From Deltaproteobacteria bacterium (GTDB lineage Bacteria > Myxococcota > Myxococcia > Myxococcales > 40CM-4-68-19), in the NCBI GenBank assembly GCA_005879315.1, contig VBLC01000035.1, positions 65,686 through 129,685 of the forward strand: DNA of 64,000 nucleotides, given 5' to 3'. Made by a program: the position numbers and the translations under genes. The notes beneath the pieces are model-generated. The model was given only the letters and a program-made list of their open reading frames with translations, did not search any database and was not told where the DNA came from. Each line of letters begins with the position of its first letter. The first letter of the stretch is position 1. Of this stretch, positions 4,227 through 63,486 are shown piece by piece.

Positions 4227-4826
4227 ATGAGCAAGCGCTACGAGCCGAAGAACTTCCCGAGGCTCAAGGGCCTGTCCGGCATCTCGGACAGCCTGCTGCA
4301 GGACCACTTCAAGCTCTACGAGGGCTACGTCAAGAACGTCAATGAGCTCAATTCCCAGCTCGAGCAGATCCTCAAGGATGGCAAGGCCAAGGGAACCAAC
4401 CCGGCGTTCGCCGAGCTGACCCGCTGGCTGGGATTCGAGTACGGCGGCATGGTGCTGCACGAGCTCTACTTCGCGAACCTCTCGCCGGAGCCCGACCCGC
4501 TGGTGAAGGGCGGCCCGCTCGGCGCGGCGCTGGTCAAGGCTTTCGGCACCGTCGAGGCCTGGCTGGAGGACTTCAAGGCCATCGCCGGCATGCGCGGGGT
4601 GGGCTGGGCCATCTGCTACCAGAATCCGGAGACCAGGGAGGTCTCGAACCACTGGGTGGAGCTGCACAACAGCGGCCATCCGCCGGGGTTCAAGCCCATC
4701 GTGGTGATGGATTGCTGGGAGCACGCCTTCGTCCCCGACTACAAGGTGACCGAGCGGGCCAAGTACATCGACGCGTATTTCCGCAATCTCGACTGGAAGG
4801 CTTGCGAGGCGCGGCTGATCAAGTAG
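4227..4826 (+). CDS. Fe/Mn superoxide dismutase family protein (divergent)
   Basis: ATG 4227 follows AAGGAGG (4215-4221). Candidate metal ligands are present: DHFKLYEGYV (His), MVLHELYF (His), DCWEHAF (Asp, His). The N-terminal motif deviates from the canonical HHxKHH. Confidence 0.8.
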   Translation: MSKRYEPKNFPRLKGLSGISDSLLQDHFKLYEGYVKNVNELNSQLEQILKDGKAKGTNPAFAELTRWLGFEYGGMVLHELYFANLSPEPDPLVKGGPLGAALVKAFGTVEAWLEDFKAIAGMRGVGWAICYQNPETREVSNHWVELHNSGHPPGFKPIVVMDCWEHAFVPDYKVTERAKYIDAYFRNLDWKACEARLIK

Positions 4827-58107: not shown

Positions 58108-59589
58108 TCAGAACGAAATGAACGTGGCGATGCCCGCCTGGAAGGTGTCGATGGCCTGGATGTGCGTAGCGCCCGGCTGCAGCGCCCAGCGGCGCTGGAA
58201 GTCGACCCGCATGTAGATGGGCCCGAACATCTTGTAGGCCAAAGACGCGGCGAGAAGGGATCGCTCATCGAGCTTGAAGGCGTCGTCGAATCCGCTCTTC
58301 ATGTTCTTGCGCAGGTAGTAGGCCGAGACCTTGAGGAGCTCGAATTTGGGGAGGGTGGCGAAGAAGCCGAGCGAGGCGCCGTTGGGGTCGCCCTGGTAGT
58401 CCTGGTAGAGCCCGCCGATCTGCAGGAAGCCGGCGAAGCCGAAGGCGAGCTCGCCGTAGTAGCCCTTGCGATCGATCGAGGTCGGGTCGATCCCCGGCGC
58501 ATTGTGCGCGTCCGTCGCGGCGATGTATTTGGGTTTGTAGGTGGTCGTTGCGCCCGAGAGGACCGCGTACTGGATGCGGCCCAGGTCGTAGGTCTGGTCG
58601 AAGTACTCGGGGATGTATCCGGGCTGCATCATCCGGTACTCGAGGCGGGCCTGCACGTTGATCTGCAAGACCGGCACGGGCAGGTAGAGATCCGTCAAGA
58701 CGCCGGTGTGCAGGCCGTTTCCGGCGCCGGCGATGCGATTCAAATCGACGTACGGGATGACGCTGATGAGCGAGTTGCGCAAGAGCTCGAACTCAGTGTC
58801 CACGCCTCCGGCATAGATCGCCTGGGAAGCGGCGATGATGGGGTTGCCCTTGCCGTCCTGCGTGAGCGTCCCGTCGGCGTTGTAGGTCAGCGCCCGCGGC
58901 GCCGCGAGGTCGCTGACGAAGGAGACGCCGACGGCCCACCCGCGCAAGAAGGGCGTCTCGCCGAAGGGCCGCAGATACGCGCGCGTGCCCACCAAGGTCG
59001 GATTGGCGACGTAATCGGTCAGGGTCTCGATCCCGAAGTAGGTGCCGTTCAGGTCGAGGGCGAGGCCGACCTTGGGATGGTCGAGGCTCAGGTTGTTGGC
59101 GTAGCGATTGATGAGCGTGCCGTGGCCGAGCGTGGCTCCCCAGAGCTGACCGGCGAGGAAATAGACCGGGTCGCGCTTGTGCCCGTAGCGGACGAAGCGG
59201 ATGAGACGGGCGAAGCTCTGCGGCTCGTCCCAGTCGCGCTTGCGGATGACGCCGCGGTAGGTGATGTCCTCGCGCCGGATGCCGGCCTCGGGCGAAACCA
59301 GAAGGTTCGAGGGAAGCGAGAGGCCGAGTCCCACCGGGCCGAGGCTGAACTCGGTGTTGATCACCGTGCTCATGTAGCTGCCTTCGCCCGCGATGCGCGT
59401 GTACCCGAAGCCGACGAAGGCGCCCTCCCGGCCGCTGAAGATCTGCGAGGGATCGGCGAACGCCTGTCCCACGCCCGCTGCGTTCGGCTGGTTCTGGCCC
59501 GCGACGCCGAGCGGCTCGGGCGGCGGCTCTTGCTGCGCGGCGGCGGCTGTGCTCAGGGCCAGAAGGAGGAGGGCGCTGCGGTAGGACAT
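58108..59589 (-). CDS. outer-membrane beta-barrel protein, function unknown
   Basis: 493 aa. Signal MSYRSALLLLALSTAAAAQ. Alternating strand pattern, C-terminal ...GIATFISF ending in Phe. GGAG lies upstream of the ATG. Confidence 0.65.
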   Translation of the reverse strand: MSYRSALLLLALSTAAAAQQEPPPEPLGVAGQNQPNAAGVGQAFADPSQIFSGREGAFVGFGYTRIAGEGSYMSTVINTEFSLGPVGLGLSLPSNLLVSPEAGIRREDITYRGVIRKRDWDEPQSFARLIRFVRYGHKRDPVYFLAGQLWGATLGHGTLINRYANNLSLDHPKVGLALDLNGTYFGIETLTDYVANPTLVGTRAYLRPFGETPFLRGWAVGVSFVSDLAAPRALTYNADGTLTQDGKGNPIIAASQAIYAGGVDTEFELLRNSLISVIPYVDLNRIAGAGNGLHTGVLTDLYLPVPVLQINVQARLEYRMMQPGYIPEYFDQTYDLGRIQYAVLSGATTTYKPKYIAATDAHNAPGIDPTSIDRKGYYGELAFGFAGFLQIGGLYQDYQGDPNGASLGFFATLPKFELLKVSAYYLRKNMKSGFDDAFKLDERSLLAASLAYKMFGPIYMRVDFQRRWALQPGATHIQAIDTFQAGIATFISF

Positions 59590-59676: not shown

Positions 59677-60606
59677 TCACCGCCGGCGCAGGATGAGCGC
59701 GCGGAAGAGCTGGGCGAAACCGCCGGACGCAGTCGCATCGGGCCAGTGCGGCGAGCCCAGAAGGGGCAATTCCAGCGAAAGGAGGCGCGAGAGGAGCGGA
59801 TGGCGGCGGCGCACCTCCTCGGCGGGTGCGGCGAAGACCTCGCAGGAAGTGAAACGGCGCAGGCGCCAGAGGTCGGTGTAGCTCGCACAGCGGACCGAGA
59901 GGTCGGCTCCGAGAAGCTCGTGCAGCGGGAGCTGCTCGACGGCGAGGCCTGCGCCCTCGGCAGCGTCGCGGAGCTGGCGGAAGTCGATCGACCACTCGAG
60001 GTGCTCGCCCTGGCCGAAGGCGGCGAGCAGCCGGATCGGCGCGGGATCGAAGTCCCCGCCGAATTCGCTGAGGACGGCTGCGCCGCCGCTGGAGAGGACG
60101 CGCGCGATCTCGAGGACGAGCTCGATGGCGCCGGCGTTGCGGCCGCGCTCGGCCGGGAGATCGGCCATCATCTCGTTGGCGAGGATGAGGCCGTCGAAGG
60201 ATCTCGTCCTCAAGGGGAGCGCGACCGCGTCGGCGCGCAGGCCTTGCCAGCGGCGGTGGGCGCCGCCCGGTTGCGAAGGCTCGAGCAGCCGTCGTCGCTG
60301 TGCGCGCAGCAGCGCCGGCGAGAGATCGAGCGAGGTCCAGCGCGACTGCGTGAACGGCCCGGCGTCGCCGCGCCAGGCAGCCTCGGCCAGGTGTCCTGCG
60401 CCTCCGCCGATCTCGAGCACGCCGCGTTGTCCCGGCCCGATGCCGCGGCTGCCGATCCCCTGGAGGAGCGCCTCGCCATACCGGCGGCCGCCCAGCGCGG
60501 GATGGGGAAGGCGCAAGAGGTGCGAGATGGTGCACTCCACCTCGTCGAACCGCCGCCGCGCCGGGAGGCGGTCGAGGCGGTGGTGCGCTCGGGTGGCGTC
60601 CTCCAC
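59677..60606 (-). CDS. class I SAM-dependent methyltransferase (architecture reminiscent of DUF185/MidA)
   Basis: Real part of track ORF 59677..61122. Motif I: VLEIGGGAGHL. LILANEMMADLP resembles the NE..DA.P motif of MidA-type enzymes. The start is uncertain (GTG 60606 proposed). Confidence 0.6.
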   Translation of the reverse strand: MEDATRAHHRLDRLPARRRFDEVECTISHLLRLPHPALGGRRYGEALLQGIGSRGIGPGQRGVLEIGGGAGHLAEAAWRGDAGPFTQSRWTSLDLSPALLRAQRRRLLEPSQPGGAHRRWQGLRADAVALPLRTRSFDGLILANEMMADLPAERGRNAGAIELVLEIARVLSSGGAAVLSEFGGDFDPAPIRLLAAFGQGEHLEWSIDFRQLRDAAEGAGLAVEQLPLHELLGADLSVRCASYTDLWRLRRFTSCEVFAAPAEEVRRRHPLLSRLLSLELPLLGSPHWPDATASGGFAQLFRALILRRR

Positions 60607-60647
60607 TCGGCCGGGAGTTGTCGCGCGGCCGAGGGGTGGCGGGCAAG

Positions 60648-61019
60648 TCAGACTGCCGGCGGCGTGATGCGCAGCGTCCCTGAGGATGGCTGCGTGAGCG
60701 TCAGCGGATCGAGCCCCGCCTGCGCCGGGCCGTTCAGGACGCTGCCCGACAGAGTGAACTGCGAGCCGTGGCAGGGGCAGCGGAAGCCGTCGGTTTTGGG
60801 GATCACCGTGCATCCCTGGTGCGGGCAGGCCCCGCTGAGGGCGCTGTAGGCGCCTGCCAGCCGGACGACGATGATCGGATAGGGATAGCCGGCCGCTTTG
60901 CCTTCGACGACGCCGCCATCCTGCTGCAGCGAGGGATAGTCCGCGATGTTGATGGTCACGGCGCCATCCTGCAGCGCGCGATAGGTGCCGTCGCCGGGCA
61001 GGAGCTGCATGCGCACCAC
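60648..61019 (-). CDS. Rieske [2Fe-2S] domain protein (bc/b6f PetA-like cluster motifs)
   Basis: 123-aa track ORF with CPHQGC ... CPCHGSQF. The same frame stays open upstream to 61259 and contains a second Rieske motif pair (see next feature). Confidence 0.75.
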   Translation of the reverse strand: MVRMQLLPGDGTYRALQDGAVTINIADYPSLQQDGGVVEGKAAGYPYPIIVVRLAGAYSALSGACPHQGCTVIPKTDGFRCPCHGSQFTLSGSVLNGPAQAGLDPLTLTQPSSGTLRITPPAV

Positions 61020-61246
61020 GCCGCGGGCGTCGACCGCGGGCTGAAGCGCGGTCAGGTCCTGGTTGGCCGGCGGATTGATGACTCGCCCGTCGCTCGCGAA
61101 GCGCGAGCCGTGGCAAGGGCACTCGACTTCCTCGTCACTCCCGACCCAGGTCAGGTCGCATCCGGCGTGCGGGCAGTCGGCATTGAAGGCGAGATAGCGA
61201 CGGCGGCGCGTTGGGCCAGCTGGCGGCGGGAGAGGTCGTCGGCCAT
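61020..61246 (-). pseudogene. N-terminally truncated extra Rieske module plus out-of-frame Tat-like start
   Basis: In frame with the downstream Rieske ORF: ...RYLAFNADCPHAGCDLTWVGSDEEVECPCHGSRFASDGRV... There is no ATG/GTG/TTG upstream in that frame. ATG 61246 (GGAG 6 nt upstream) opens a different frame, MADDLSRRQLAQRAAVA..., which stops after 31 codons. Confidence 0.5.
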
Positions 61247-61259
61247 TTCGCGCTCCGGG

Positions 61260-61835
61260 CTAGAAGGTCAAGACGGTGAATCCGGCGAAAGTGGCCACCA
61301 GCGCCGTGTAGCCGATGATCTGATGCGCGAGAGCGAAGTCGCGCTGGGAGAGGCGGCCCTCGCGCGATCCGGTGACGATGCCGAGCACCACCTCTGCGGC
61401 CATCGCCGCCGTCGCGGTGGCCATCGCCGCCTTGTGCAGCGTGGCGGTGTCGAGGCGGAGTGGCTTTTCGAGCGGGCTTGGCGCAAAGACCGCGAGGGCG
61501 CCGGTGGCGGCGAAGATGGCGGCGCTGCCGTAGGCGGTCCAGCGGTGCCACTGGTGGAAGTTGCCGGTGTCGCCGCGGCCGCCATACTTGTCCATGTAGT
61601 CGAGCTGCCCGAAGATGACCGCCAGGCTCATGCTGCCGAGCGTGAGAAATCCGCCCAGCTGGTGCAGCTGCAGCATGCGCCGCCGCAGCGAGAGCTTTGC
61701 CTCCAGCTCCTTCTGCCGCTGAAGAGCGGCAGGGTCTGGCGCGGCCTCCTTGGGCAAGAGCTCGAAGTCCTCGGAGGGCGGCTGCTCTTGCGGCGCCCCC
61801 TGCAAAAGCGAGATGGCGAGCGCGAGAGCGAGCAT
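61260..61835 (-). CDS. membrane protein with four helices each carrying a histidine (possible di-heme b-type protein)
   Basis: 191 aa. N-terminal hydrophobic signal-like segment, then helices beginning LHQLGG..., HQWHRW..., LHKAAM..., LAHQIIG... Adjacent to yceI-like and Rieske genes. Confidence 0.6.
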   Translation of the reverse strand: MLALALAISLLQGAPQEQPPSEDFELLPKEAAPDPAALQRQKELEAKLSLRRRMLQLHQLGGFLTLGSMSLAVIFGQLDYMDKYGGRGDTGNFHQWHRWTAYGSAAIFAATGALAVFAPSPLEKPLRLDTATLHKAAMATATAAMAAEVVLGIVTGSREGRLSQRDFALAHQIIGYTALVATFAGFTVLTF

Positions 61836-61860
61836 CAGTTCCTCTGCGCGAGCGGCACTC

Positions 61861-62388
61861 TCACTTCGCCGGCCCGAAGATGAGGTCGCCGCTGATCGTC
61901 ATCCGGTCGTCGACCTTGATGAAGAGGAGCTCGGGGCGCTCGACCTTGAGCGCCTCGAGGCTGACCGGAAAGGAAAAGGTGGCGTGCACGCCGTCCTTTG
62001 CAGGCTCGAGCTTGACGGGCACTTCGATCGGCTGCTTCTCGCCGTTCAGCTCCACGGTGCCTCGCAGCGTAGCCGAGAGCGGAGCGCCGAGAGGCCAGGT
62101 CAGGCCGCTCATCGTGCCCTTGACGGTCGCGTACGGGTGCGCGGCCTCGTGCGTGGCCTCGCGCATGTGCGCGTCGCGGTTCGAGTTGCCGCTGTCGAAT
62201 GAGGCCACTTTGGCGCGCACCTGGACCTTGGTCGATCCGCCCTCCTCGATCAGCGCGCGACCCTCGATCTGCCTGGTGGTGCCGACGACCTCATGCAGCT
62301 TGTGCACCACCGTATAGCGCAGGGCGCCCTCGCGCACCTCGAGCATTTGCCCGGCGGCGAGGAGCAGTGCGAGGGCGAAGGAGGACAT
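61861..62388 (-). CDS. YceI-like (polyisoprenoid-binding) periplasmic protein
   Basis: ATG 62388 (MSSFALALLLAAG...). FDSGNSNRDAHMRE is the hallmark YceI motif. About 175 aa. Confidence 0.75.
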   Translation of the reverse strand: MSSFALALLLAAGQMLEVREGALRYTVVHKLHEVVGTTRQIEGRALIEEGGSTKVQVRAKVASFDSGNSNRDAHMREATHEAAHPYATVKGTMSGLTWPLGAPLSATLRGTVELNGEKQPIEVPVKLEPAKDGVHATFSFPVSLEALKVERPELLFIKVDDRMTISGDLIFGPAK

Positions 62389-62398
62389 TCGACCGATG

Positions 62399-62887
62399 TC
62401 AGAGCAGAAAGCGGATCGCGAAGAGAAAGTCGAGCAGGAAGTGCGGCTCGGGAGCCAGCGCGAGCGCCGGCGCCACTTCCAGGCCGAGCGCGAGCGGCGC
62501 TTGCTTGAGGAGCAACTCCACTCCGAAGGGCGCGCGGGCGCCGGCATAGACGCCGCCCGAGCAGCGGTCGGTCAGGAACCAGGGGCTGCAGGGACTCTCG
62601 AAGGCGCCGACGAACGGCCCGGCCCCCATGTAGACCTCGAGGTCTACGGTGCGGTGGCGCCCGCGGGCTTGCGTCCACAGCCAGTCGAAGCCGAAGCGGA
62701 GGCCCGGGCCGTAGAGAAAGGCGAAATTGATGTCGAAGGCCTGCGTGCTCCCGACGTACTGCTTGAAGGAGAGCCCGAAGGGGTTGCCCACGGTGAAGCC
62801 GAGGGAGGAGCGCGCCGGCCGATCGGCCTGCGTCTCGCGCGCGAGTGCGCCGCTGCTCAGCGCCAGAGCGAGGAGAGCAAATTTCAG
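62399..62887 (-). CDS. small secreted/outer-membrane beta-rich protein, apparent CTG start
   Basis: The track ORF starts at GTG 62791, but the frame is open upstream and encodes a clear signal peptide, KFALLALALSSGALA/RETQA. The only initiation candidate is CTG 62887, overlapping the def stop (CTGA). Confidence 0.5.
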   Translation of the reverse strand: MKFALLALALSSGALARETQADRPARSSLGFTVGNPFGLSFKQYVGSTQAFDINFAFLYGPGLRFGFDWLWTQARGRHRTVDLEVYMGAGPFVGAFESPCSPWFLTDRCSGGVYAGARAPFGVELLLKQAPLALGLEVAPALALAPEPHFLLDFLFAIRFLL

Positions 62888-63486
62888 AGGGCGGTGGCCT
62901 CGCCCTTGCGCTCGGCTTCGCGCTGGGCCTTGTGCTTCTTCAGGCGGCGGCGGATGAGCTCGCGCTTGAGCGCGCTGAGGTGGTCGACGAAGAGCTTGCC
63001 CTGCAGGTGGTCCATCTCGTGCTGCACGCAGACGGAGAGGAGTGTGTTGGTCGCCTCCAGCCGGCGGCGCTTTCCGTCGCGGCCGGTGAACTCGACGACG
63101 ATGTGGCCGAAGCGGGTGACCTCTTCGTACTCGTCAGGGATGGAGAGGCAGCCCTCGGTGTAGACGAACTCGCCCTCGCCCAGCTTGAGGACCGGATCGA
63201 TCAGCCAGAAGAGGCCCTCGCCCTTCTTCTTCGGAGGCTCACTTGCCCGCCGTTGAGTTCCTTCGCCTTCCGACTCCGGCACGTTAGCCCGCTGCTCGAC
63301 GTCGATGGCGATGACGTTCTGCAGGACGCCGATCTGCGGCGCAGCCAGGCCGACGCCGTTGGCGTCGTACATCGTCTCGGCCATGTCATCGCAGAGCTTG
63401 CGTACGGCCGCGTCGACGTCGCCGACGGGCTTGCCCTTCTGCTTCAGGCGCGGGTCGGGCCAGATGATGATCTCGCGCAGTGCCAT
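62884..63486 (-). CDS. def: peptide deformylase
   Basis: 200 aa. Motifs: GVGLAAPQIG, EGCLSIP, HEMDHLQG. It carries a charged insertion between motifs 1 and 2 and a basic C-terminal tail. Confidence 0.9.
   Translation of the reverse strand: MALREIIIWPDPRLKQKGKPVGDVDAAVRKLCDDMAETMYDANGVGLAAPQIGVLQNVIAIDVEQRANVPESEGEGTQRRASEPPKKKGEGLFWLIDPVLKLGEGEFVYTEGCLSIPDEYEEVTRFGHIVVEFTGRDGKRRRLEATNTLLSVCVQHEMDHLQGKLFVDHLSALKRELIRRRLKKHKAQREAERKGEATAL

Follow-up and report, generated by a model that had tools for sequence, protein, structure and literature searches.

A YceI lipocalin gene and a putative four-histidine di-heme membrane cytochrome beside the remnant of a tandem Rieske gene in a myxococcal genome

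We have analyzed a stretch of 64,000 nucleotides (nt), hereafter the window, from contig VBLC01000035.1 (positions 65,686 to 129,685) of assembly GCA_005879315.1, a Deltaproteobacteria bacterium placed in the Myxococcota. Toward one end five reading frames lie in a row on the minus strand (59677-62887), encoding a small secreted beta-rich protein, a YceI-family lipocalin, a protein with four transmembrane (TM) helices that we call the 4-TM protein, Rieske sequences and a methyltransferase. The original prediction, made from the sequence, took these as a single envelope redox module with a miniature Rieske/cytochrome-b-like electron path. Its reading frames, coordinates and motifs were correct, but the module was drawn too widely and one of its members is broken. 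We cautiously favor a reading in which the functional core of the locus is a two-gene envelope redox pair, comprising the YceI lipocalin and an unannotated, b561-like di-heme cytochrome. The Rieske gene of the window is a pseudogene, with intact counterparts in related genomes.

The assignment of the YceI protein was borne out. It has a signal peptide and the motif FDSGNSNRDAH, it matches PF04264 well above the gathering threshold (E = 6.6e-14, 53 bits against a cut-off of 23.7), and BLASTP aligns it with Escherichia coli YceI (E = 8e-8). Solved YceI homologues hold an isoprenoid or quinone ligand within the beta-barrel (PMC9113575). In the window the YceI gene is co-oriented with the 4-TM gene and lies 25 nt from it. 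A scan of the GTDB species representatives gave 49 loci with a 4-TM gene, nearly all from Myxococcota, and neighboring genes were counted in 47 of these by tblastn; the relatives compared with the window carry numbers such as L001 and L003. The YceI gene adjoins the 4-TM gene in 32 of the 47 loci, including those of Anaeromyxobacter oryzae, two Myxococcus species, Polyangia and one metagenome-assembled genome (MAG) of the Flavobacteriaceae. YceI together with the four-histidine membrane protein is the most deeply conserved unit of the locus. The linkage of YceI, 4-TM and Rieske genes extends far outside the source genome, and the adjacency of yceJ and yceI in E. coli, to which the locus had been likened, was confirmed.

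The window 4-TM protein is identical to the hypothetical protein E6J78_03755 of a soil 'Deltaproteobacteria bacterium' MAG. An N-terminal signal-like helix is followed by a conserved segment containing DF.LLP and RR, and then by four TM helices. A histidine was predicted at the start of each of these, and all four are present, in LHQLGG (H58), HQWHRW (H97), LHKAAM (H134) and LAHQIIG (H171). No residues of the family are better conserved. None of the four varies among 120 close homologues, and 132-136 of 137 representatives retain them at a median identity to the query of 39%; H94 of HQWHRW is not conserved. Further near-invariant positions are R51-R52, G62, G76, F108, A118-P119, G152 and G175, so that a glycine lies at i+4 of both H58 (G62) and H171 (G175). 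Searches for the family returned 354 clusters from the 90% database and, at E <= 1e-3, 533 representatives from the 50% library.

In an AlphaFold2 model of the protein (predicted local distance difference test score, pLDDT, 87.9) a short helix resembling a signal peptide is followed by four long ones, and every conserved histidine stands at the start of its TM helix. Because consecutive helices alternate in direction, the model places H58 and H134 at one face of the membrane and H97 and H171 at the other. As judged from sequence and model this is the arrangement needed for two bis-histidine hemes, and pairing of helices 1 with 3 and 2 with 4 is the pattern found in eukaryotic cytochrome b561. 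The di-heme layout proposed from one histidine per helix in four consecutive helices thus stands as a prediction from the sequence, and the 4-TM protein is probably a two-heme cytochrome. Conservation of the histidines, and of the gene order beyond the source genome, had been proposed as checks on this assignment, and both were borne out.

Profile searches of the 4-TM protein, which had been suggested as a check on this assignment, gave sub-threshold matches concentrated on b561 families. The single Pfam match of the window protein is to PF01794, the TM domain of ferric reductases. It extends over profile positions 2-120 of 121 at E = 0.0075, yet its 16.8 bits fall short of the cut-off of 28, and one of 66 members examined matches this family. 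At E <= 0.05, 25 of these 66 diverse members match PF03188 (best E = 8.3e-6) and 12 match PF01292; the window protein itself has no match to PF03188, and none to PF01292 at E <= 0.1. COX15-CtaA was matched by four members, PepSY_TM by three, DUF4079 by two and other TM families by one each, where about three matches (66 x 0.05) are expected by chance over all families. The scores inspected were 15-26 bits and below the cut-offs (15-18 bits against 23 for PF03188), with 25.7 bits against PF01292 (cut-off 30.1) for P0032, the one relative scored individually. The cytochrome b family of the bc1 and b6f complexes was absent among the Pfam matches of the window protein and its 66 relatives.

In a profile-profile alignment by hhalign of the 4-TM family with Arabidopsis CYB561B (E = 4e-4, Prob 34%), H58 and H97 fall on H118 and H157. 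The CYB561B query is identical in sequence to PDB 4o6y, and we regard its H118 and H157 as the heme ligands (H117 and H156 in the published numbering). A hidden Markov model built from a plant CYB561 alignment gave weak matches on the 4-TM family, and a profile search of PDB sequences returned 4o6y alone, at E = 1.8. Taken together, the sequence comparisons suggest a protein that is b561-like in design, whether by remote homology or by convergent recruitment.

The Rieske gene is not intact. The bc/b6f-type motifs reported for it are present, the C-terminal part of domain 1 containing CPHAGC...CPCH (61110-61175) and a complete domain 2 containing CPHQGC...CPCH (60768-60827). The sequence matches PF00355 in two stretches (E = 3.1e-24), and in NCBIfam it comes closest to PetC/bc1 Rieske subunits, with every score far short of its cut-off. 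In this frame there is no start codon before GTG 61019, and a protein begun there has no signal peptide. The frame opened by ATG 61246 encodes the sequence MADDLSRRQLAQRAAVA, which resembles a signal for twin-arginine translocation (Tat), but beyond this it is out of frame until a stop at 61151. The orthologue in L001 is intact, with 270 aa, a Tat motif, the lipobox LAGC and two complete Rieske domains, and the body of the window sequence is 67% identical to its residues 73-270. From the BLASTN blocks, about 217 nt are missing from the window relative to L001 6625-6847. This is not a multiple of three, so that the reading frame is shifted, and with the missing stretch went the lipobox and the N-terminal half of domain 1. 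In addition to the 5' part of the Rieske gene, the window lacks the DUF4399 gene, the gene for a small PSCyt-like protein and the gene for a 90-aa protein (p90) that are found in L001.

L007-L012 share the identical deletion junction, although they derive from different samples and projects and represent two haplotypes of single-nucleotide polymorphisms. Thus in six of six other assemblies of this population that reach the Rieske region the gene is a pseudogene, and an assembly artefact as the cause of the frameshift is ruled out. Because the same junction occurs in independent assemblies, the window Rieske gene is a real pseudogene of the population, and therefore the proposed Rieske-dependent electron path cannot operate in this genome. 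No second copy of the module was found within the window. Automated pipelines call nothing, or a short open reading frame (ORF), at this position. L007 has lost a further 7 nt within Rieske domain 2 (about 4500-4560, corresponding to window position ~60790), in keeping with continuing decay, and L008 has a run of N, a scaffold gap, between two repeated segments encoding CPCHGS. After the deletion the Rieske remnant shares the frame of the 4-TM gene, from which it is parted only by the TAG of that gene (61256-61262). This is probably coincidence, the chance being one in three. Read-through of the TAG would fuse the 4-TM protein to the Rieske sequence, with the C-terminus of the fusion in the periplasm; we found nothing in favor of it, and L007 carries the further 7-nt deletion.

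In the relatives a Rieske gene lies within a few kilobases of the 4-TM gene in 25 of the 47 loci, and in all of these except L044, which has a single domain, it encodes two Rieske domains in tandem. All 30 tandem ORFs recovered have an RR motif, a cysteine after an N-terminal hydrophobic stretch (mostly G/A-C, and thus lipobox-like) and two complete C.H...C..H cluster motifs. The family has about 77 clusters, annotated merely as 'Rieske Fe-S protein'. An AlphaFold2 model of the tandem protein (pLDDT 92.9) was compared with known structures by Foldseek, and the best match was PetC3 (PDB 5cxm; E = 2e-6, 38% identity), ahead of other single-domain Rieske proteins and of the b6f, bc1 and arsenite-oxidase subunits. 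Like PetC3, the intact relatives have a Tat motif, a lipobox-like cysteine and a minimal Rieske fold of the bc/b6f type. They differ from it in having two Rieske domains per lipoprotein and in their linkage to 4-TM and YceI genes, and the window copy is a pseudogene. Nothing relevant emerged from literature searches on YceI with Rieske proteins or on tandem or double Rieske proteins. The tandem, PetC3-like Rieske lipoprotein of these related genomes, with its linkage to a putative b561-like cytochrome, is a genuinely undescribed accessory.

The 4-TM gene is found in three gene contexts. In the first, which is that of the window, the locus lies between def and alaS and the YceI gene directly precedes the 4-TM gene. 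Eight such loci (L023, L024, L028, L029, L030, L034, L041 and L043) have both a 155-aa PSCyt-like protein and a tandem Rieske protein, and nine (L018, L022, L025, L026, L027, L031, L032, L038 and L042) have neither, the two genes being present together or absent together. The second context (L003-L006, L015, L016 and L019-L021) contains a 4-TM paralogue, a convergent gene for a 171-aa outer-membrane protein (OMP), a 680-aa CxxCH protein, a DUF1501 protein, a tandem Rieske protein, a 243-aa OMP-like protein and a 148-aa PSCyt-like protein. The third is a compact operon of 4-TM, YceI and tandem Rieske genes, found in A. oryzae (L045), Myxococcus qinghaiensis and Myxococcus eversor (L047 and L048) and Polyangia MAGs. 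In variants of it the Rieske gene encodes only one domain (L044) or is replaced by that of a c-type cytochrome (L058), or there is no third gene (L053, L055 and L056). The 4-TM gene occurs without YceI in the second context and in L051, L052 and L059. In the Flavobacteriaceae MAG (L061 961-4786) three consecutive genes encode a SOUL heme-binding protein (E = 1e-34), a YceI protein and, between them, a 4-TM-like protein that keeps all four histidines. Two genomes with a Rieske-less def-alaS copy also carry the second context, namely OBJ2_061818_050_49 (L015 with L031) and SMAG_U10014 (L016 with L042). Since some genomes thus hold a further copy elsewhere, redundancy may explain the loss of the Rieske gene.

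There is a precedent for a YceI protein paired with a membrane cytochrome. In Burkholderia cenocepacia, mutants of the cytochrome b561 LcoA and the YceI lipocalin BcnA show raised peroxidation of membrane lipids; it has been proposed that LcoA re-reduces the quinone carried by BcnA, and natural b561-YceI fusions occur in alpha-proteobacteria (PMC9113575). Cyanobacterial Rieske lipoproteins of the PetC3 type are already described as well (Veit et al. 2016, as cited in PMC12341915). The statement that the locus resembles no described complex was therefore too strong. The window locus shares with LcoA-BcnA and yceJ-yceI the adjacent, co-oriented genes for a secreted YceI protein and a four-helix membrane protein with four conserved histidines, and a linkage conserved over a wide phylogenetic distance. 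It differs in that the membrane partner is not recognizable as a PF01292 protein, has a cleavable-looking signal peptide and bears one histidine per helix, in that the gene order varies, and in that Myxococcota add the tandem Rieske lipoprotein. With eukaryotic cytochrome b561 (PF03188, PDB 4o6y) the 4-TM protein would share one candidate ligand histidine on each of four consecutive helices, paired 1 with 3 and 2 with 4. In contrast to those proteins it has four TM helices rather than six, the scores of its family fall mostly below the 23-bit cut-off, the profile-profile probability is 10-34%, and its context is bacterial and periplasm-facing, without evidence of an ascorbate site. From these comparisons the locus appears to be a system of the YceI/b561 kind, with a membrane partner from a different, unannotated family.

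In the two-gene reading, the secreted YceI lipocalin would carry an isoprenoid lipid or quinone. The 4-TM protein would sit in the cytoplasmic membrane and have its signal peptide cleaved, leaving both its N-terminal segment and its C-terminus in the periplasm, with H58 and H134 ligating a heme toward the periplasmic side and H97 and H171 one toward the cytoplasmic side. The cytochrome could then move electrons between the quinol pool or the cytoplasm and the periplasm, and so keep the YceI-bound quinone or lipid, or another acceptor in the envelope, reduced. By analogy with LcoA-BcnA the role may be protection against lipid peroxidation. In the ancestral module of Myxococcota a Tat-exported lipoprotein with two PetC3-like [2Fe-2S] domains would have acted as a periplasmic relay, often with a c-type cytochrome or a small protein of the PSCyt-like kind as its companion. 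This relay would have decayed in the lineage of the window, where the PSCyt-like gene is gone and a deletion has left the Rieske gene frameshifted. On this account the tandem Rieske lipoprotein and its PSCyt-like or cytochrome c partners would be an optional periplasmic relay, and the myxococcal 4-TM family would stand in for the PF01292 cytochrome, as a remote relative or by convergence.

A number of points weigh against this reading. The 4-TM protein of the window matches no Pfam or NCBIfam family above threshold; hhalign detects no similarity to E. coli YceJ (Prob 0.2%) and gives a Prob of 9.6% against a plant-only CYB561 profile; and Foldseek matches the model in PDB to generic helical bundles only. 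The conserved histidines could bind a metal instead of heme. Co-location is no proof that the YceI, 4-TM and Rieske proteins interact, and many lineages have lost the Rieske gene, so that the pair, whatever its function, can dispense with it. The mechanism of LcoA-BcnA is itself a proposal (PMC9113575).

Other readings make different use of the same evidence. For relatives with intact genes, among them A. oryzae, M. eversor, M. qinghaiensis and many soil Myxococcota, it is possible, though we would put it only tentatively, that the 4-TM cytochrome, the tandem Rieske lipoprotein, the PSCyt-like protein and YceI form an undescribed, periplasm-facing electron chain, distinct from bc1/b6f, for envelope redox homeostasis. 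If so, the window captures that chain while it is being dismantled. We are doubtful of the earlier suggestion that a YceI quinone carrier, a di-heme 4-TM protein and the Rieske protein constitute a miniature Rieske/cytochrome-b complex oxidizing quinol. The linkage of 4-TM and tandem Rieske genes in three different contexts would fit this, as would the recurrence nearby of other periplasmic redox proteins (PSCyt-like proteins and cytochromes c), and the locus resembles bc1/b6f in having Rieske cluster motifs with the extra disulfide cysteines and a candidate membrane b-type cytochrome encoded next door. However, the window Rieske sequence is a frameshifted remnant without a signal peptide, nine related loci have no Rieske gene at all, the Rieske partner is lipid-anchored and dispensable, and its fold is nearest to that of PetC3. 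Veit et al. are said to have found in 2016 that PetC3 acts outside the b6f complex. Nor does the 4-TM protein have the cytochrome b signature that a bc-like Q-cycle would call for. In bc1 and b6f both hemes are ligated by two helices and there is a PEWY/Qo site, a pattern that the 4-TM protein does not show.

We are equally skeptical that the 4-TM protein works alone, as a CybB-like superoxide:quinone oxidoreductase or a transmembrane reductase of the ferric or ascorbate type, with YceI a mere neighbor. Its weak similarity to PF01292, PF03188 and PF01794, the label 'predicted ferric reductase' given to one homologue by the Joint Genome Institute (JGI) and the loci lacking YceI all accord with such a role, but the adjacency of YceI extends across two phyla and there is no similarity to YceJ. 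That the protein binds no heme, its four histidines holding a metal ion or having a structural or transport role, seems distinctly unlikely. It has no significant match to any solved heme protein and the profile comparisons are weak, yet histidines placed singly on each helix, at matched depth and close to small residues, are typical of bis-histidine heme sites, the sub-threshold matches are concentrated on heme-b families, redox proteins recur as neighbors, and a SOUL heme-binding protein is encoded directly upstream in the Bacteroidota locus. Highly improbable, finally, is a single five-gene operon, with a quinone or protein of the pathway as the substrate of the methyltransferase and the small OMP serving for its export or anchoring. 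The genes are on the same strand with short gaps and no convincing internal terminator, and the methyltransferase has a very weak UbiE/MenG-like NCBIfam match (E = 0.004), but this scores 16.5 bits against a cut-off of 158. Moreover the methyltransferase gene never accompanies the 4-TM-YceI-Rieske operons of Anaeromyxobacter, Myxococcus and Polyangia, nor the second context, and the small OMP is encoded in only two related loci. Both follow the def-alaS neighborhood and not the 4-TM gene.

If the two-gene reading is right, its interest is general. Pairs of YceI and cytochrome b561 are widespread, and only recently has a function been assigned to them, in protecting the envelope against lipid peroxidation. 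Myxococcota and at least some Bacteroidota appear to use a different, unannotated four-histidine membrane protein in the cytochrome's place, and therefore either very remote homology or convergent recruitment is implied. The double Rieske lipoprotein of many Myxococcota would give a handle on the periplasmic partners of such cytochromes, and cultured hosts exist (A. oryzae and Myxococcus spp.). There is also a gain for annotation, as a family of about 530 clusters is currently without a Pfam or NCBIfam model.

The features of the locus are collected in Table 1. Beyond the 493-aa OMP-like protein the next gene on the minus strand is alaS. The gaps within the group of five frames are -4 to 41 nt, and a scan for promoters and terminators was uninformative in DNA of about 68% G+C.

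Table 1. Features of the def-alaS locus in the window (GC3, G+C content at third codon positions; SAM, S-adenosylmethionine)
Feature	Coordinates	Strand	Evidence
def	62884-63486	minus	six-frame translation and GC3 frame plot
Small secreted beta-rich protein, 162 codons from CTG	62399-62887	minus	six-frame translation, GC3 plot
YceI-family lipocalin, 175 aa	61861-62388	minus	PF04264
4-TM protein, 191 aa, putative di-heme b561-like cytochrome	61260-61835	minus	
Conserved His codons of 4-TM protein	H58 61662-61664; H97 61545-61547; H134 61434-61436; H171 61323-61325	minus	
5' end of Rieske gene remnant, ATG 61246 to out-of-frame stop 61151	61151-61246	minus	aligns with start of intact L001 gene
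Deletion junction in Rieske gene	61199-61204	minus	BLASTN blocks against L001
Rieske pseudogene body	60648-61198	minus	PF00355, two stretches
Class I SAM-dependent methyltransferase, 309 aa, GTG start	59677-60606	minus	PF13649, PF08241, PF02636
493-aa OMP-like protein	58108-59589	minus	

The methyltransferase had been described as MidA-like. It does score above the cut-off for the MidA family PF02636, but barely (23.9 bits against 23.3) and with fewer than half of the 249 profile positions matched (22-126), and it scores higher against PF13649 (29.3 bits) and PF08241 (27.3 bits). A search against PDB gave no informative match. The gene is present in 18 def-alaS loci and in none of the other two contexts, and it is probably not part of the redox module. 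The 493-aa OMP gene, kept between the methyltransferase gene and alaS in most def-alaS loci, and p90 are likewise confined to this context. The 493-aa protein has a signal peptide, ends in ...ATFISF and matches the Leptospira NCBIfam family 'ImpL63' (E = 1.5e-48, 166 bits against a cut-off of 1000); from its sequence it is probably an outer-membrane beta-barrel, and we take it, too, for a def-alaS neighbor outside the redox module. It has no homology to the DUF6029 OMP that is encoded, together with an AhpC/TSA-family protein, on the opposite strand of the Flavobacteriaceae locus. In most relatives the p90 gene (L001 7441-7713) is flanked by the Rieske gene and the methyltransferase gene, and its product has weak Metal_resist (Spy/CpxP-like) similarity (E = 0.011).

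The small secreted protein begins in an unusual way. Its signal peptide, LKFALLALALSSGALA, starts at CTG 62887, which overlaps the stop codon of def (CTCTGA; 62884-62890). There is no ATG, GTG or TTG before the signal peptide, and the earliest canonical start is GTG 62791, within the mature protein. The same arrangement of CTG and def stop codon is found in L001 (3955-3965; 76% DNA identity), and since it is kept there without a canonical upstream start, the sequences suggest either a CTG start or coupling to def by termination and reinitiation. The L031 homologue has an ordinary ATG start 60 nt downstream. Among the loci searched by tblastn, only L001 and L031 encode homologues; the protein matches no Pfam or NCBIfam family and has no homology to the 171-aa OMP of the second context. 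It is a local neighbor and no conserved partner of the 4-TM gene.

Some further proteins encoded near 4-TM genes in the relatives have features of redox proteins. The small secreted PSCyt-like proteins of 148-155 aa (L001 5533-6000; L005 12033-12479) have a C-x4-6-C-H motif and weak similarity to PSCyt1, the planctomycete cytochrome c family. They co-occur strictly with the tandem Rieske protein in two gene contexts (pairwise E = 7e-4) and, from the motif, may be atypical partners binding heme c. In the second context (L003 7525-10892; L005 7244-10554) the protein of 675-680 aa contains CYACHQSLDP (CxxCH), has no Pfam match and is encoded beside the DUF1501 protein, which has a Tat signal. Eukaryotic cytochrome b561 is an electron donor to copper monooxygenases of the PHM/DBH type. 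In L050 (6401-7639, minus strand) a gene divergent from the 4-TM-YceI-Rieske operon encodes a lipoprotein that has a cytochrome c motif together with both PHM/DBH-type copper monooxygenase domains (E ~1e-7 each).

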